Source: Escherichia phage vB_EcoP_SU7
Length of the DNA stretch: 64,000 nt
Sequence record: NC_070980.1
Direction: 5' to 3' (one strand)
Below the pieces are notes generated by a model. It saw nothing but the letters and a program-made list of their open reading frames with translations, did no database searches and was not told where the DNA came from. Numbering within the stretch: the stretch's first letter is position 1; each line of letters starts with the position of its first letter. The position numbers and the translations under genes are program-made. Shown in pieces: positions 60 through 43,188 of the stretch.

Positions 60-630
60 ATATACATGGGTAAATAATCAATGTGTAATATCAATGGGTA
101 GGGTATTTATGGGTAAGTATGCCACTGAACGCAGGTAGGGCAAGGCTTAGAGCTTAAAGGCGGTTTGATTTCCTAAAGGCAATTGCATTGGTAATAACCT
201 TTTTTTAAATGAGGACTCCCCCTTTTTAGGAAACGCGCTCGGAGAGGCTAGGTCCATCCGGTCAAATTGAAATTTTAAACTCTTATATATAACTATATGC
301 CCCAACGTTAGTTGTGGATTTAAGCATAAGGAACAACTTAATGTGGAAATTGAAGATGATTATTCGACAGATTAAATGTAATCACGAGTACTATCCAATC
401 CGGATATCGAGAGGTGATGAACGGTTACATGCTTATTACAAGAGTACATGGAGGTGTGCAGACTGTGGTAAGGTGAGGAATAGTAAATGGGTGGATAGGC
501 CTTAACATGACATGGCCTTTATGGGTATGCCTTAATGTGGGGTAGCCTTTATGAAGTCCCCTTTACATCAGCGTACATGGGTTTATACATGGGTGGGCCT
601 TTAGATGAGTACGCCTTTATGGGTTGATCA
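60..630. repeat. Array of short degenerate direct repeats: ATGGGT core (about 8 copies) and GCCTTTATG (4 copies)
   Basis: ATGGGT at about 66, 94, 109, 487, 521, 577, 589, 618; GCCTTTATG-like at about 514, 545, 598, 612. Far above chance for a hexamer in 640 bp. Lies upstream of the terminase genes. Confidence 0.5.
341..505 (+). CDS. Hypothetical small Cys/His-containing protein (possible Zn-ribbon)
   Basis: ATG at 341 preceded by AAGGA; C-x-H...C-x2-C spacing in the translation. Overlaps the repeat array, so coding status is uncertain. Confidence 0.3.
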   Translation: MWKLKMIIRQIKCNHEYYPIRISRGDERLHAYYKSTWRCADCGKVRNSKWVDRP

Positions 631-2150: not shown

Positions 2151-3692
2151 ATGTCGTTAGATAAAGAAATCTATGAAGCTCTAACTGGAGACAAGTTGAG
2201 TATAGAGGAAAAGAAAGCTTTGCTCAATATGTTAAAAGAAAGGGACCAGTGGAGAAAATATAACAAGATGTTGGCTTTTAAAGCCTACGACTTTCAGAAG
2301 AAATTCTATGCAGCAGGGTTGAAGCATCGCTTTCGATTCCTGTGCGCAGCTAACCGTGTTGGTAAATCTTACAGCGAGGCATACGAGTTTGCTTGTCATG
2401 TCACAGGTCGCTATCCAACTTGGTGGACAGGTTACAGATTTAATCGACCCATATTGGCTTGGGCAGTAGGGATTACAGGGGACTCTACAAGAAAGGTATT
2501 GCAAAAGGAGTTGTTTGGAACACCTATCGGAAAGGATATGAATCTAATAGGAACAGGTGTTATTCCTCGTGATGCTATCGTATTGGACACGATAGAACGA
2601 GATGGGAACAAATTACAGATTGTACAAATTAAGCATCAAAACGCGAGAGGCGAGTTTGACGGTCTAAGTACGCTGGAGTTCCGTTCTACCCAACAGGGTG
2701 AACATACATTGATGGGTGCTACGGTTGATTACATTTGGCTGGACGAAGAAGATCCATACGAATCTATGGCAATCTTCTCTCAGTGCGTAACACGTACACT
2801 TACAACTAAAGGTTTAGTTACTATTACAGCTACACCAGAGAACGGTTTAACAGAGCTGGTGGATAAGTTTATGAAAGGTGAAGGAGATGAGAACACAGGT
2901 TCTCTGTATTTCCAGAATGCTTCTTGGTGGGATGCTCATGTAGATTTAGGTGGACATATCACTGACCAAGATATTAAAGACATGACTGAAGGTATTCCAA
3001 CATGGCAGTTAGAGATGCGTTCAAAAGGTATGCCGTTGCTTGGTTCTGGTTTGATTTATGATGTATCAGATGACATGATTAAGTGTGATCCCTTTGAGAT
3101 ACCTGATACGTGGAAACGTGTTTGTGCTATTGATATTGGTATCGATCACCCGACAGCCGCTGTTTGGACAGCATATGATGCTAACACTGATACGATTTAT
3201 GTTTATGACTGCTATAAAGAAGGTGGGTTTACTCCGGTGTACCATGCACCAGCTATTAATGGTCGTGGTCAGTGGATTCCAGTTATTCTTCCTCACGATG
3301 CCGATAATATTGAGAAGGGAAGTGGTTCGTCTGTTGCTCAATTCTATAAGAATGCAGGGGTTAATGTACAGAGTGAGACCTTCTACAACAAGATTGGAAT
3401 GGATGGTAAGAAGAACTTCTTTGTAGAGCCGGGAATTACTGATATTCGTGAACGTATGATGTCAGGTCGTTTTAAAATCTTTAACATTGCTTCGTGTGCT
3501 AAACTCTTTGAAGAGAAAGCTCGCTATCACCGTAAGGTTGGCAAGATTGTTAAGGAACATGATGACTTGATGGATGCTATGCGATATTCAGCTTGTTCTG
3601 TAACACATCGTGGACGTAGTAAGCATGATGCTAGTTATGGTAGTTCATCGCTTTATCAAGACAATATTAACAGATGGAATCAGACCTACTAA
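2151..3692 (+). CDS. terL: Terminase large subunit (ATPase + nuclease)
   Basis: Walker A-like CAANRVGKS, Walker B-like IWLDEED, C-terminal acidic nuclease region; ATG at 2151 with GGAGGA SD (track ORF starts at upstream TTG 2139). Confidence 0.85.
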   Translation: MSLDKEIYEALTGDKLSIEEKKALLNMLKERDQWRKYNKMLAFKAYDFQKKFYAAGLKHRFRFLCAANRVGKSYSEAYEFACHVTGRYPTWWTGYRFNRPILAWAVGITGDSTRKVLQKELFGTPIGKDMNLIGTGVIPRDAIVLDTIERDGNKLQIVQIKHQNARGEFDGLSTLEFRSTQQGEHTLMGATVDYIWLDEEDPYESMAIFSQCVTRTLTTKGLVTITATPENGLTELVDKFMKGEGDENTGSLYFQNASWWDAHVDLGGHITDQDIKDMTEGIPTWQLEMRSKGMPLLGSGLIYDVSDDMIKCDPFEIPDTWKRVCAIDIGIDHPTAAVWTAYDANTDTIYVYDCYKEGGFTPVYHAPAINGRGQWIPVILPHDADNIEKGSGSSVAQFYKNAGVNVQSETFYNKIGMDGKKNFFVEPGITDIRERMMSGRFKIFNIASCAKLFEEKARYHRKVGKIVKEHDDLMDAMRYSACSVTHRGRSKHDASYGSSSLYQDNINRWNQTY

Positions 3693-3697
3693 AAATA

Positions 3698-3720
3698 GGG
3701 GAGGCTTTGTCCTCCCTTTA
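3698..3720 (+). terminator. Terminator-like hairpin
   Basis: GGGGAGG-CTTTGT-CCTCCC stem-loop after the terminase stop; weak T-run. Confidence 0.35.
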
Positions 3721-38838: not shown

Positions 38839-39150
38839 CTACTTCTCCACCACAAAGAGGTTAACTTCAATGAAAGTTTCGTATTGTGTTGACTCCTGCT
38901 TACGGGTGTAGTAGAAATGACGACCTTCTAATGCACCTCCGTACTGAGTGGCACATCTTTTAACCATCTCTTTTATCACATCTACAACTGATTCGCCTTT
39001 CCACGGACGTAACCCCTGAGTTGGGACTTTTGCTGTACAGGTTACTTGTGTGTAACCTACATCTTGTAGAGATATCTCAAGAATCAGCTTTGCCCAAGCA
39101 TCAAAATTAAGCTTGGGGTTATATTTAACTTCAGTTTTGATATCAATCAT
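38839..39150 (-). CDS. Hypothetical protein
   Basis: 103-aa ORF whose ATG overlaps the stop of the polymerase C-terminal segment (TAATG). Confidence 0.4.
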   Translation of the reverse strand: MIDIKTEVKYNPKLNFDAWAKLILEISLQDVGYTQVTCTAKVPTQGLRPWKGESVVDVIKEMVKRCATQYGGALEGRHFYYTRKQESTQYETFIEVNLFVVEK

Positions 39151-39302
39151 TAGTGAGTATGATTCCAGTTTAATCCAATCTTACAATCTGATGCAAGAGG
39201 ACATTCCATCTTGAGGTATTCCCCTGCTTTACGAACACATTCTTCAGTGAGGGTACGAAGTTTGTTAACATCATCACGATGTACAGTGAACTGACCTTCA
39301 TC
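39150..39302 (-). CDS. DNA polymerase A C-terminal segment (putative exon 2)
   Basis: Encodes DEGQFTVHRDDVNKL...KIGLNWNHTH*, matching the family A polymerase C-terminus (post-motif-C region and terminal NW..H). Under 60 aa, so absent from the ORF track. Confidence 0.6.
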   Translation of the reverse strand, partial: DEGQFTVHRDDVNKLRTLTEECVRKAGEYLKMECPLASDCKIGLNWNHTH

Positions 39303-39909
39303 CATTCAGTTATTCCCAAATTACTTCGGGTGTCGGACTATATCATAACAGCATAGCTAATTTGCTGTTGTTGGCGCTTCGAGGGTTTCCCTGTTAACCC
39401 CCTACTCCCTTAGGATAGTCTCTACACTTTCCACTTCCGAATCCATCTACAACCGATTCCGAAGCTCACACCAAACTTCTCTGCAAGATGTACACCAGAG
39501 CATTCTGTTTCTAGCCAATAAAGCCTTGCAGCTTCTTGTCTATCTCCATTTCTTCCAGTGTTTGATTCTATTGCATGTTCTGAACCTTCAAGCATTTCTA
39601 AGTGCTCAAGATTGGAACAAGCCCTATTCTTGCATTTGTGATTTATTTCATAACCATCAGGAATAGAACCAAAAGATTCTTCCCAAACATATCTATGATA
39701 CATGACCCATTTGCCATCTATTACTTTTCTGAAATAACCATCTTTGTTAAGTTTGTGTGAGATAGGGATGATACACCCTGTTTCGGTTGTTTCCAAAACA
39801 AGAGTTTTCTTAGCCATATCATCTCCTAATAGCTTAGCTCGGTATTGCCCCCAACTTAATGGTAGGGTTTCACCGAGTTCACCAACTTTTACATGCACAA
39901 TGAAAGTTT
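39303..39909 (-). mobile_element. Intron-like insertion (candidate group I intron) carrying an HNH gene, splitting polA at motif C
   Basis: Upstream segment ends ...ATG CAT (U at the 5' junction); insertion ends ...TGAATG (terminal G); joining gives ...IDMH|DEGQF, restoring an HDE motif C. Core intron structure not verified. Confidence 0.45.
39422..39817 (-). CDS. HNH homing endonuclease (within the polA insertion)
   Basis: ATG 39817 with AGGAG SD; motif YEINHKCKNRACSNLEHLE. Confidence 0.7.
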   Translation of the reverse strand: MAKKTLVLETTETGCIIPISHKLNKDGYFRKVIDGKWVMYHRYVWEESFGSIPDGYEINHKCKNRACSNLEHLEMLEGSEHAIESNTGRNGDRQEAARLYWLETECSGVHLAEKFGVSFGIGCRWIRKWKV

Positions 39910-41604
39910 ATGCATGTCAATAACCTTCGCACAACGAACACCATCCCGCTCAATCCATTTATTGAGGAATAGCATTGCATACTTCATAACAATCGCCCCA
40001 GCGCTCTGTAAGAGTGTATTTAAGGCTTTATGGACCATAACCTTTCCAGTTGCATCTCTTCTCATTGTAATACGACGTCCATCCACACCGTAGATATATC
40101 CACTTTGCGCTTTCTCTGTCATACGTTCAATAAGGATTGCAATACAAGGGTTCTCTGCTAAGAATCTTGCTCTCATGATAGCCCCTTCGTCAGAGCCACC
40201 ACCTACAATACTTCCTAACTTAGCGTCACCTGCCCCATAGTTAAAGGCATAGATAAACGTTTTAGCATTATCACGAGTAGGAAGGCCAGCAAGTTTTTGG
40301 TTATGTGAGTGAATATCTCCTTCTAAAAGAATATCTCTATACATAACAGCAGAAGCTAGACCACGTTCAGCTTCTCGTTTCTTAGCCGGGTTGTTTTCTC
40401 GCTCTGCTTCAGCGAGCATCTCACGACATTCTTTAATAAGGTAGTGAGCTAGCATCCTCAGCTCAAGACCAGAGCCATCGTAACCTAAGAAGATTTCACG
40501 ACCAGCAGGAACATAGAACTTATAGGCACCTACAGGTTTGTCTTTCTTGCCCGGTTTTCCCACTTCGTAGATAATGTTAGTACCCTTTCGTACGTAACAC
40601 CCATCAGGGATATGGTTGGTAATGATGAAAGGATGGTTATGACTATCGTCTGAGGAATAGTCAGATTGAAAAAGACTGCGGCACTCGTGACCAAACAAAC
40701 CGCGAGAAGGAATATTAACAACAATGCGATGTTTAAAACGAAATGTCGGAGTAGCGCAGCTATTAGCTTCGGCGGACAACTTACCATCTTTACGTTCCTT
40801 GTCGATAAGCCCGCTAATCAAACCTAGCCTGTGAGCCGCTACAACGCGTCTCTTAAGCAAACTTCCTACACCCCCTAGCTCACCCCCAAGCCCCTCTTCA
40901 AGAGTCTCCTCAAGGTTTGTAGGGGCTGTGGGCCACTTGTTTGATGTAGCCAAAGCTTTTTTGATTTCATCAAAGGTTACAGGTTTCTTCCTATTCGGAT
41001 TAAGACCTAAACCACTGACGTAGGCTTTCATGTAGTTGACAGTGTGATAACGGAAATGTTTATCCAAAAATCTTCGGATATCAGCATCTATCATCTCCGC
41101 TGTCTGTTTCTCTTTAGCATTACCTCGAATCCAAGCAGAATACCATGCAGAGTATGTACCATACTTCTTCATAGCTCTACGGATTTCAAATGTATTCCAA
41201 GGTTTCTTAGAATAATTCCACTCTGGAGGTATGAAGCCTTCGTCCATCAAGGCTTCTTTGATACGTGCATCTTTCGATGGGTCGAAGTCTACATACTCAA
41301 CGCAAGTAAACGCCCCACCGATATCTTCTCTTTTAAGACCAACTCTGTCACAATAGAGCTGAGGCCACTTCTGTAAAGCACCTGACTTCTTAAAAGGTTT
41401 CGAATAAGTTGAACCATCCACCCGCATTTTGGGGAGGAGAGGAATCAGTTCTTTATCAATATTGACAATAATCTCTTTGAGAAGGTGAACAAACCACCGA
41501 GCGTTTCTTCTGTTGAAGTTGACTCCATGCTTCGCTTGTTTTGAGATTATATCAGCGACTGTCATCTCCGTTATGAAAGGTAACTTATCAGGGTTATCCA
41601 TCAC
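39889..41604 (-). CDS. DNA polymerase A, polymerase domain (T7 gp5-like; putative exon 1)
   Basis: Motif B region RDNAKTFIYAFNYGAGDAKLG and downstream LLQSAGAIVMKYAM; ORF stops 5 codons after DMH, immediately before motif C. Confidence 0.85.
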   Translation of the reverse strand: MMDNPDKLPFITEMTVADIISKQAKHGVNFNRRNARWFVHLLKEIIVNIDKELIPLLPKMRVDGSTYSKPFKKSGALQKWPQLYCDRVGLKREDIGGAFTCVEYVDFDPSKDARIKEALMDEGFIPPEWNYSKKPWNTFEIRRAMKKYGTYSAWYSAWIRGNAKEKQTAEMIDADIRRFLDKHFRYHTVNYMKAYVSGLGLNPNRKKPVTFDEIKKALATSNKWPTAPTNLEETLEEGLGGELGGVGSLLKRRVVAAHRLGLISGLIDKERKDGKLSAEANSCATPTFRFKHRIVVNIPSRGLFGHECRSLFQSDYSSDDSHNHPFIITNHIPDGCYVRKGTNIIYEVGKPGKKDKPVGAYKFYVPAGREIFLGYDGSGLELRMLAHYLIKECREMLAEAERENNPAKKREAERGLASAVMYRDILLEGDIHSHNQKLAGLPTRDNAKTFIYAFNYGAGDAKLGSIVGGGSDEGAIMRARFLAENPCIAILIERMTEKAQSGYIYGVDGRRITMRRDATGKVMVHKALNTLLQSAGAIVMKYAMLFLNKWIERDGVRCAKVIDMHKLSLCM

Positions 41605-42541: not shown

Positions 42542-42859
42542 TCAACTTGAGCTTAAAGCTCCTTTGCGACCGCCTGCTGATTTTCCAGCACGATCTCCAC
42601 TTTTGCCGCCGTTCGAGCGATTTCGAGAGACTGATTCAACACGTAAGTTACTTGACGCATTAGAACCTCCCGACTTGATTGATCGTTTGTGTCCAACATC
42701 TTTACCTCGGACAGCAGCTTTTCCATCGCGCTTTTCAACGATGCGACGTGCACGGTGGCGCTGAGCATCTCCGCTCTTGCTCCCAATTCCCGTTTCACCG
42801 CGCTTGATCGCAGTCCTTCTTTCTTGAGCATAGTCTCTTTTTCCTACATGATCTGCCAT
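42542..42859 (-). CDS. Hypothetical basic Gly/Ser/Lys/Arg-rich protein
   Basis: 105-aa low-complexity basic ORF; an alternative helical ORF (42553-42831) occupies the same DNA in another frame, so the true frame is unresolved. Confidence 0.3.
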   Translation of the reverse strand: MADHVGKRDYAQERRTAIKRGETGIGSKSGDAQRHRARRIVEKRDGKAAVRGKDVGHKRSIKSGGSNASSNLRVESVSRNRSNGGKSGDRAGKSAGGRKGALSSS

Positions 42860-43188
42860 TAGATTTCTCCTGATTCTCTTTGGTTAAAGGTGTGGATGGC
42901 GTGGCAATTAGCACACAATATCCTGCACTTCCTCATCTCTTCTTTTATTTGAGATAAAGATCTGGTGTGCCCTTTGGAGAGTTCGAATGACTTAGTTAAT
43001 GGATTTAAATGATCAAACTGAAGAGCAGATGCGTGGCCTTTAAAACCACATTCAGAGCACCCGTAGAATGTTTTAACTCTACGAATAAAAGCTAGTTGCC
43101 TAAACCTTCTTCTCTCATTGTCTGCTTTTCTCTTATCTCTATTTCCTGGGTCGGCCCATCTACACGAGTCATTGCAAAACCTCTGCAT
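42859..43188 (-). CDS. HNH endonuclease
   Basis: CSECGF...QFDHLNP...LCANCH motif. Confidence 0.65.
   Translation of the reverse strand: MQRFCNDSCRWADPGNRDKRKADNERRRFRQLAFIRRVKTFYGCSECGFKGHASALQFDHLNPLTKSFELSKGHTRSLSQIKEEMRKCRILCANCHAIHTFNQRESGEI

Follow-up and report, generated by a model that had tools for sequence, protein, structure and literature searches.

The window analysed here is a stretch of 64,000 nt from the phiEco32-like coliphage Escherichia phage vB_EcoP_SU7 (NC_070980.1), and all positions refer to it. On its minus strand lies a family A DNA polymerase gene in two parts, separated by a 607-nt insertion that carries an HNH homing-endonuclease reading frame (Table 1). Left unspliced, the polymerase reading frame runs from 41604 or 41601 to 39889 and ends in ...AKVIDMH KLSLCM*, with six read-through codons after the histidine and not the five counted in the first-pass annotation. 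The ATG at 41601 is more likely to be the start than the GTG at 41604; the annotations of ECBP2 and HC-25922 begin the gene at this codon as well, and a clear AAGGAG Shine-Dalgarno sequence precedes the gene. On the far side of the insertion a reading frame of 51 codons (39305..39150) encodes MDEGQFTVH...NWNHTH, its ATG being made of the final three bases of the insertion. We note that in GenBank this frame is called as a separate gene in ECBP2, PE006 and PAS59.

Table 1. Features of the interrupted polymerase gene, in window positions. Structural elements are those of the modelled intron.
Feature	Position	Strand	Details
Family A DNA polymerase exon 1	39910..41601	-	564 codons; last codons ATT GAC ATG CAT = I D M H
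Probable group I (IA2-type) intron	39303..39909	-	607 nt; intron position 1 = 39909, position 607 = 39303
P1 hairpin	39891..39917	-	exon ACAUGCAU (39917..39910) pairs with guide GUGCAUGU (39898..39891); U·G at splice site
P10 5' strand	39899..39903	-	UCAUU; partner GAUGA, first five bases of exon 2 (39302..39298); 5 bp
P3 5' strand	39880..39886	-	GUUGGUG; partner CGCCAAC 39376..39370
P4-P5 domain	39838..39877	-	P4 CUCGGU/ACCGAG (P, Q elements); P5 CCC/GGG, enlarged L5
P6/P6a	39837..39831 with 39428..39422	-	last codons of the HNH ORF and its UAG form the 3' strands (39428..39422)
HNH homing-endonuclease ORF	39422..39817	-	131 aa + stop, in P6a loop; Shine-Dalgarno AGGAG 39827..39823
Catalytic core, 3' half	39336..39420	-	order: P7 5', P7.1, GUA, P7.2, P3 3', P8, J8/7, P7 3'
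P7 5' strand	39420..39415	-	GACUAU (R element)
P7.1	39414..39407	-	CC-UAAG-GG, then A-GUA linker
P7.2	39402..39381	-	GGGGGUU/AACCCUC
P8	39369..39347	-	J8/7 next
P7 3' strand	39341..39336	-	AUAGUC (S element)
P9, 3' tail and omega-G	39303..39330	-	P9 CCCGAA-GUAA-UUUGGG 39330..39315; omega-G 39303
Polymerase exon 2	39150..39302	-	GAT GAA GGT ... = DEGQFTVH...NWNHTH + stop codon

Alignment with the intron-less polymerase gene of HC-25922 defines the boundaries of the insertion unambiguously as ...ATGCAT|AAAC......GAATG|GATGAAGG. Exactly these 607 nt are absent from relatives that are 99.0-99.4% identical, and the same insertion is found at the same site in at least seven other independently sequenced Gordonclarkvirinae isolates, among them ECBP2, PAS59, PE006, FH3, 1-6af/bf and pEC-N1203-2Af.1. 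The alignment confirms the earlier proposal that the polymerase is broken at motif C by an insertion of this length (39909..39303), and also that U ends the upstream segment and G ends the insertion, the latter base (39303) being set by the indel boundary. The exons of the window and of HC-25922 show one difference near the junction, at position +9; since the window, HC-25922 and ECBP2 each have a different base there, no co-conversion tract can be called. An intein is ruled out by the in-frame stop codons within the insertion. The distribution of the intron is patchy among near-identical phages, and the same element turns up in polymerase genes from phage families with no close relation to one another; both observations give indirect support to homing.

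When the two exons are joined in silico, the product is a polymerase of 614 aa which differs from that of the intron-less HC-25922 at one residue. The joined product contains a single Pfam DNA_pol_A stretch (362-611), and phmmer aligns it with T7 gp5 in one stretch that crosses the junction, with vidmHDEgqf set against mawvHDEiqv (H|DE of motif C). The first-pass suggestion that a CAT|GAT join restores HDE is thus borne out. Beyond the C-terminal third of the polymerase (residues 422-612), the alignment with T7 gp5 consists of short low-scoring stretches only. If the transcript is spliced, a junction-spanning peptide, VIDMHDEGQFTVHR, would be expected.

The structure modelled for the insertion lacks P2. 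Between P7 and P3' it has the helices P7.1 and P7.2, linked by GUA; extra helices at this place with a G-U-A linker are the mark of subgroup IA2 (PMC3428280). The same arrangement is seen, with differing sequences, in most members of the family, two of which (L017 and L021) have a linker other than GUA. The core positions that are invariant in the family are all intact in the window, where the motif GATATAGTCYG has one exact match only, in the 3' core. The in-frame UAA that closes the exon 1 read-through (39891..39889) overlaps the 3' end of P1 by one base. Two other pairings, CUCGGU/ACCGAG as P2 and CCCUAC/GUAGGG as P3, were dropped, because the consensus of the P and Q elements, together with the alignment of the family, makes CUCGGU/ACCGAG P4 and GUUGGUG/CGCCAAC P3.

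A covariance-model search for a group I core, proposed in the first-pass annotation as a check, gave partial matches. The Rfam model Intron_gpI (RF00028) matches the 3' core with 26.3 bits (E = 3e-4), a partial match that does not reach the gathering threshold of 50 bits, and a second match on the 5' core (14.3 bits, E = 1.2) is statistically insignificant. The low score says little against an intron, because the accepted introns of 13a and K1F likewise fall under the gathering threshold; when the window was screened along with 15 related loci, nothing but the Rhizobium phage RNR intron passed it. The Rfam model cannot bridge the 396-nt ORF. A related intron in which the ORF lies outside the ribozyme core (L016) scores 83.6 bits, and its Rfam structure line shows the core helices laid out as they are in the window intron.

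Folding and covariation point in the same direction. Folded without constraints, the ORF-deleted core has a minimum-free-energy structure that contains P3, P4, P5, P6/6a, P7.1, P7.2, P8 and P9 (z = -2.2). These are all the non-pseudoknotted helices of a core in which P3 and P7 form a pseudoknot. Across 12 family members, 96.6% of the modelled pair cells are paired, compared with 30-47% when the partners are slid, and 15 pairs are changed on both sides, a count matched in none of 500 shuffles. The covarying helices are P3, P5, P6a and P9: five of the seven pairs of P3 show compensatory changes while the helix is 100% paired, as do four of the six pairs of P9. P10 is paired in 94.9% of cells. 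P7, P4 and P7.1 are invariant in the family, so that their support comes from conservation and homology to the consensus only, and one pair of P6 is a C·A mismatch in the seven members that remain when the window's group and Vp_R1 are set aside. The U·G pair of P1 is invariant in all 12 members. At exon position -6 the P1 pair is A-U in five members and G-C in seven, tracking the base in the host exon, which indicates a guide tuned to each host gene. The P1 and P10 pairings, the covariation of the IA2 core, the fold and the homology to the 13a and K1F introns all support the group I reading first made from the insertion boundaries.

The endonuclease ORF lies between the strands of P6a, at intron positions 93-488. 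It had been listed from a GTG at 39898; the true initiation codon is the ATG at 39817, behind AGGAG, and the ECBP2 annotation has the same 396-nt ORF. The frame is intact and full length and matches Pfam HNH_3 (E = 1.6e-12), in agreement with the earlier description of an HNH ORF with its own Shine-Dalgarno sequence. Its product is 56-63% identical in amino-acid sequence to the intron-encoded proteins of 13a, K1F, Vp_R1 and others. Searching the PDB with the HNH protein returned a spurious TCR match alone (E = 0.07), and when the ORF was run against a large protein collection, the matches were 110 clusters without names, none of them tied to I-TslI by name.

Full-length homologs of the intron are present in the polymerase genes of unrelated phages, with BLAST E values down to 5e-46; together with the recurrence of the insertion among Gordonclarkvirinae, this goes well beyond chance. 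The gene 5 introns of 13a, K1F and other T7-like phages share 63-68% nucleotide identity with it over the full length. The 13a homolog is inserted at codon 653|654 of 704, at T7 His653|Asp654, and in RefSeq gene 5 of both 13a and K1F is entered as a two-piece join; the K1F element has been described as a putative group I intron (PMC4925675). The gene 5 introns of ΦI and W31 (records AY769989 and AY769990; partial) are reported to be self-splicing introns of subgroup IA2 with an HNH ORF in P6a, at Pol I site 881 (PMC3428280, on Bonocora & Shub 2004); their endonuclease is I-TslI. As Pol I His881 precedes Asp882, the insertion site in the window is the ΦI/W31 site. The SU7 element resembles those of ΦI/W31, 13a and K1F in its insertion between the H and DE of motif C, in its IA2 architecture with P7.1-GUA-P7.2 and no P2, and in its 131-aa HNH_3 ORF, which begins in the P6a loop and finishes in P6. 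Its link to the experimentally spliced ΦI/W31 introns runs through homology to 13a and K1F together with the published site and architecture. Three metagenomic homologs that were looked up are all located at H|DE in DNA_pol_A genes.

There are several differences from the T7-like systems. The SU7 polymerase is of the phiEco32 type, without a fused exonuclease. The guide is GUGCAUGU in SU7 and GUGCACAU in the T7-like introns, a retuning to the new exon, and the SU7 intron has a larger L5, a shorter P7.2 and a P8 of another kind. Further HNH-bearing group I introns are known from phage family A polymerase genes, namely those of Pf-WMP3 and of SPO1, SP82 and Bastille (I-HmuI, I-HmuII and I-BasI; PMC3428280); I-PfoP3I, which belongs to the IA2 polymerase intron of cyanophage Pf-WMP3, is a nicking HNH endonuclease (PMC3428280). 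These introns have in common with that of SU7 a location in a highly conserved catalytic region, U before the 5' splice site, a terminal G and a separate ribosome-binding site for the ORF (PMC3428280), but their insertion sites, 674 or 676, belong to the fingers subdomain, whereas 881 is in motif C. Searches with the SU7 intron detected no nucleotide similarity to them. In the literature we found no report of an intron in phiEco32-like phages, Kuravirus or Gordonclarkvirinae.

In our view, the insertion is very probably a mobile group I intron of subgroup IA2 and of the ΦI/W31 type, and splicing in SU7, the activity of the endonuclease and its cleavage site are predictions from sequence. It is a genuine and ordinary mobile element of an intron family already known from T7-like phages. 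The polymerase gene would be transcribed through the intron, and the RNA would fold into P1-P10, with the guide GUGCAUGU on the last eight exon bases and the splice-site U in the U·G wobble. An external guanosine, bound in P7, would attack after ...AUGCAU; the terminal G (39303) would then take its place in the G site, with exon 2 held by P10 (UCAUU/GAUGA). Ligation of the exons as ...AUG CAU GAU GAA... would yield the 614-aa polymerase with the His-Asp-Glu of motif C intact. The 131-aa HNH_3 protein would have its own translation start in the P6a loop, with a separate Shine-Dalgarno sequence and AUG. In relatives infecting the same cell it may nick or cut polymerase alleles that lack the intron, close to the conserved TGCAT|GATGA, after which recombinational repair would copy the intron into the cut allele. 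In the intron-less polymerase gene of HC-25922 the putative target reads ...GTTATTGACATGCATGATGAAGGACAG....

The first-pass annotation had named as an alternative two separately translated polypeptides, here a 570-aa product ending ...IDMHKLSLCM and a 51-aa product MDEGQF..., which would assemble non-covalently around an insertion that is simply a free-standing endonuclease cassette. The nrdA gene of Aeromonas phage Aeh1 is split by mobE in this way and translated as two polypeptides; there, too, a homing-endonuclease gene interrupts an essential replication gene, whose downstream part starts with AUG. In SU7 an in-frame AUG stands immediately before exon 2, and the annotators of ECBP2, PE006 and PAS59 give the 51-codon ORF a gene of its own. 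Split genes of the Aeh1 type have no ribozyme, whereas the SU7 ORF is flanked by a complete, covarying group I core: the non-coding flanks of the ORF, about 210 nt, show the conservation and covariation of a group I ribozyme, something for which a simple endonuclease cassette has no need. The only Shine-Dalgarno-like bases before the exon 2 AUG are GGGA, which lie inside the P9 stem and leave no usable ribosome-binding sequence. Nor is this AUG conserved in the family, being AAG in the T7-like members, PT2 and Vp_R1 and UAG or AGG in others. Finally, the Asp and Glu of motif C are catalytic, and both would need to come in trans from the small piece. We regard this alternative as very unlikely. 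Very unlikely, too, is a back-up route in a gene that is both spliced and split, whereby on failure of splicing a 51-aa piece bearing Asp-Glu, made from the intron-terminal AUG, would complement the 570-aa product.

A further reading, likewise very unlikely, is that of a decayed intron or assembly artefact which inactivates the polymerase gene, with another polymerase used or the genome not viable: the uninterrupted reading frame is indeed broken and the Rfam gathering score is not reached, but the same insertion recurs in at least seven independently sequenced isolates, the family-invariant core positions are intact, the HNH ORF is full length and the exons are as conserved as in intron-less relatives, with one amino-acid difference. 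One case against an intron foreseen in the first-pass annotation, a missing core together with an assembly error, likewise does not hold, given the complete IA2 core and the presence of the insertion in those other isolates.

Read as a probable group I intron, the insertion calls for a single spliced CDS in the annotation of the polymerase of SU7, ECBP2, PAS59, PE006, FH3, 1-6af/bf and pEC-N1203-2Af.1. The present annotation shows two 'DNA polymerase' fragments and an unrelated nuclease. The SU7 case leaves the known working of such introns unchanged. It adds to a picture of one unit of intron and endonuclease at the invariant motif C codons, shared by four phage lineages or more, namely Autographiviridae, Gordonclarkvirinae, Vibrio phage Vp_R1 (Grimontviridae) and unclassified metagenomic phages, whose polymerases have only short, low-scoring stretches in common outside the C-terminal third. 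With its guide re-adapted to each host exon, the element would be a clean natural case of homing across phage families into a target that is conserved universally.

The source of the window is a phiEco32-like coliphage (Gordonclarkvirinae; Kuravirus or Suseptimavirus), and sequence matching places its 2.7 kb polymerase region at 95% to ECBP2 and at 99.0–99.4% to several Kuravirus genomes. The polymerase ORF reads past AKVIDMH through six codons (KLSLCM) to a UAA; the first-pass annotation had recognized the early stop but counted five codons. Alignment with the intron-less phage HC-25922 (L002) indicates exactly 607 extra bases in the window (39909..39303), flanked as ...ATGCAT/AAAC...GAATG/GATGAAGG (slashes mark the junctions), and a one-base shift of the boundary in either direction no longer recovers the intron-less sequence. 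Apart from the codon count, the earlier description is therefore correct: a 607 bp insertion at this place, U ending the exon and G ending the insertion, an HNH ORF with its own Shine–Dalgarno sequence and a 51-codon downstream segment bearing the family A C-terminus.

Joining 41601..39910 to 39302..39150 in silico gives a 614-residue protein; compared with the polymerase of HC-25922, which is uninterrupted, one residue and 13 of 1845 nucleotides differ. Pfam DNA_pol_A matches it in a single stretch (residues 362–611, 85.5 bits). In a phmmer search of solved structures residues 422–612 align in one stretch with T7 gp5, with vidmHDEgqf opposite mawvHDEiqv, which bears out the proposal that a CAT/GAT join restores an HDE motif C. 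Once joined, the exons encode a normal polymerase. The T7-like phage 13a has a homologous insertion after codon 653 of its 704-codon gene, which is T7 His653/Asp654, Asp654 being the metal-binding aspartate of motif C (T7 and Klenow polymerases); in Pol I, His881 precedes Asp882. The intron ends with an AUG (39303–39305, −) that is in the reading frame of exon 2, which accounts for the 51-codon 'DNA polymerase' ORF reported by gene callers. The same AUG ends the intron in PE006, PAS59 and the metagenomic T7-like contig L019; other members have AAG, UAG or AGG.

Features of the polymerase locus and the intron RNA. ORFs are in window coordinates; helices are in intron positions (1 = 39909, 607 = 39303), assigned by manual reading of the intron sequence.
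Feature	Position	Strand	Remarks
Family A polymerase ORF	ATG 41601 (GTG 41604 in ORF list)	−	reads to ...AKVIDMH
HNH ORF	ATG 39817 to UAG 39422	−	plausible start five bases after AGGAG
51-codon ORF	39305..39150	−	MDEGQFTVH...NWNHTH; third of three ORFs in order
P1	exon ACAUGCAU with 12–19 GUGCAUGU		splice-site U in U·G
P10	7–11 UCAUU with GAUGA of exon 2
P3	24–30 GUUGGUG with 534–540 CGCCAAC
P4	33–38 CUCGGU with 67–72 ACCGAG		classical P and Q elements
P5	43–45 with 60–62
P6/P6a	73–79 with 482–488		ORF in loop, with its UAG stop in the last pairs of P6
P7	490–495 GACUAU with 569–574 AUAGUC		R element GUGUAGAGACUAU, S element AUGAUAUAGUCC
P7.1	496–503
Linker P7.1–P7.2			GUA
P7.2	508–529
P8	541–563
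P9	580–595		GUAA loop
omega-G	607

The insertion has the layout of a subgroup IA2 group I intron and lacks P2. The joining of P7.1 and P7.2 by G-U-A is the IA2 signature (PMC3428280). The manual assignment is matched by three checks made independently of it, namely a free fold, Rfam and a related intron. When the core was folded by minimum free energy without constraints, a tetraloop standing in for the ORF, P3, P4, P5, P6/6a, P7.1, P7.2, P8 and P9 were recovered (z-score −2.2 against shuffles). The Rfam group I model matches the 3′ core (39421..39314; 26.3 bits, E = 3e-4), but the 5′ core match (14.3 bits, E = 1.2) is statistically insignificant and the score falls below threshold. Since 13a and K1F have accepted introns with an ORF that likewise fail, a sub-threshold score is uninformative. 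The RNR-gene intron of Rhizobium phage RHph_N3_13 (L016 1427–1676), 82% identical to the window intron over positions 18–78 (P3–P6 region), passes Rfam with 83.6 bits, and the helices in its curated structure line are those of the window intron. It splits a ribonucleotide reductase gene, and its ORF lies outside the ribozyme core.

Ribosomes translating exon 1 run only six codons into the intron before they meet the UAA, which coincides with the 3′ end of P1 (39889–39909, −); exon 1 translation would therefore cover P1 and the guide for a short time. Coupling of translation and splicing has been described for T4 introns, and the stop at P1 may be relevant to coupling of that type.

A sensitive BLAST search with the intron matched 54 phage records. 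The element is carried by seven other Gordonclarkvirinae phages (85–98% identity) and, at full length, by many T7-like phages (~63–68%), including 13a, K1F, VSG32, Yep_15, WX1, mtp4, HZP2, Bas102–104 and Aeromonas phage PT2; further carriers are Vibrio phage Vp_R1 and Klebsiella phage RCIP0053. Every extracted member has the site ...GCAT/...G/GA(T/C)GA(A/G), the H/DE boundary, and a 131–139-residue HNH ORF at the equivalent position. RefSeq gives gene 5 as a two-piece join in both 13a and K1F, and the K1F element has been termed a putative group I intron (PMC4925675). In the GenBank records of ECBP2, PE006 and PAS59 the polymerase pieces are annotated separately, and our literature search found no paper mentioning an intron in phiEco32-like phages.

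In an alignment of 12 ORF-deleted cores of the family, 96.6% of cells are paired, compared with 30–47% when partners are slid by 1–3 columns, and 15 of 51 pairs are altered on both sides. In 500 shuffles, none attained the real alignment's values for paired cells, for two-sided changes (by pair or by cell) or for the covariation score, although 50 equalled its number of further pair types. The covarying helices are P3 (5/7 pairs), P9 (4/6), P5, P6a and P1, of which P1 is the most telling. Exon position −6 is A, with guide U, in the window's group and Vp_R1, and G, with guide C, in the other seven members (six T7-likes and RCIP0053). The pair tracks the exon, and the guide has therefore been fitted to the gene in which each intron sits; such fitting would be pointless unless P1 were in use. 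Zero variation is seen in P4, P7 and P7.1 across the 12 cores, so that conservation is their only support. In per-sequence folds, hairpins for P7.1, P7.2, P8 and P9 recur in most members with differing sequences; the GUA linker is found in most, the related locus L021 being without it. The pattern match returned none for locus L017 or for the group to which the window belongs; hairpins of the window itself are visible in the minimum-free-energy fold.

Separate translation of exon 2 from its own AUG is conceivable, because the intron ends in this in-frame triplet. However, the only Shine–Dalgarno-like bases upstream (GGGA) are part of the stem of P9, the AUG varies across the family, and a conserved, covarying ribozyme would be left unexplained. 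An artefact or pseudogene is excluded by recurrence of the insertion in independent isolates and by a core and ORF that are intact. The IA2 helices, partial Rfam match, covariation and homologs support the first-pass interpretation, a spliced group I intron, as far as sequence can speak to it.

The intron ORF matches Pfam HNH_3 (E = 1.6e-12), and from the family we infer both cleavage activity and cleavage site. Its metagenomic homologs form at least 110 clusters; the three looked up all lie inside DNA_pol_A genes at H/DE, on contigs of 71–189 kb. The Shine–Dalgarno sequence and start codon lie between complementary hexamers, AGCUAU...AUGGCU (39815–39832, −), and a possible 6 bp hairpin between these could limit endonuclease translation. 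The intron is scattered within Gordonclarkvirinae, where about 7 phages have it out of 84 records that match. The window flanks differ by 0.6% from those of intron-less phages; the window and ECBP2 introns are 98.2% identical, with ECBP2 flanks 5% different. This pattern is consistent with a recent acquisition through homing or with an exact loss. Comparison with relatives gave no callable co-conversion tract in the window exons.

Other mobile elements were noticed. A second, different insertion lies in polymerase motif B (...FIYAFN/YGAGD...) of some relatives, namely Escherichia phage KBNP1711 (L003, NC_023593; about 2910–3700) and also Bas89. It has another endonuclease (151 residues), U before the 5′ splice site, G at its end and clear IA2 hallmarks: AGACUAUCC, P7.1 CCCGGAAGGG, GUA, P7.2, GAAGAUAUAGUCCG and P9 with a GAAA loop. 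It is absent from the window, where the uninterrupted site is at about 40236..40241, within FIYAFN/YGAG. A free-standing 109-residue HNH endonuclease gene (42859–43188, −; Pfam HNH 21.9 bits, just above cutoff) lies upstream of the polymerase gene at a distance of 1.3 kb and gives the replication module a second selfish nuclease. In the metagenomic T7-like contig L020 (393–2435) gene calling splits the polymerase into three (461 residues, 127 residues and the exon that follows the HNH ORF), but into two in the near-identical L019, so that L020 may have a further interruption upstream of its motif C intron.

The gene 5 introns of the T7-like phages ΦI and W31 are summarised as self-splicing IA2 introns with an HNH ORF (I-TslI) in P6a, at Pol I site 881 (Bonocora & Shub 2004, in PMC3428280). 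Compared with this published description, the window intron has the same site, architecture and ORF, whereas its guide sequence is retuned and peripheral L5, P7.2 and P8 are modified. The window element is thus an IA2 polymerase intron of the ΦI/W31 type, here in a host lineage new for it, and the likeness of the window and RHph_N3_13 introns suggests that different genes can host related IA2 cores.
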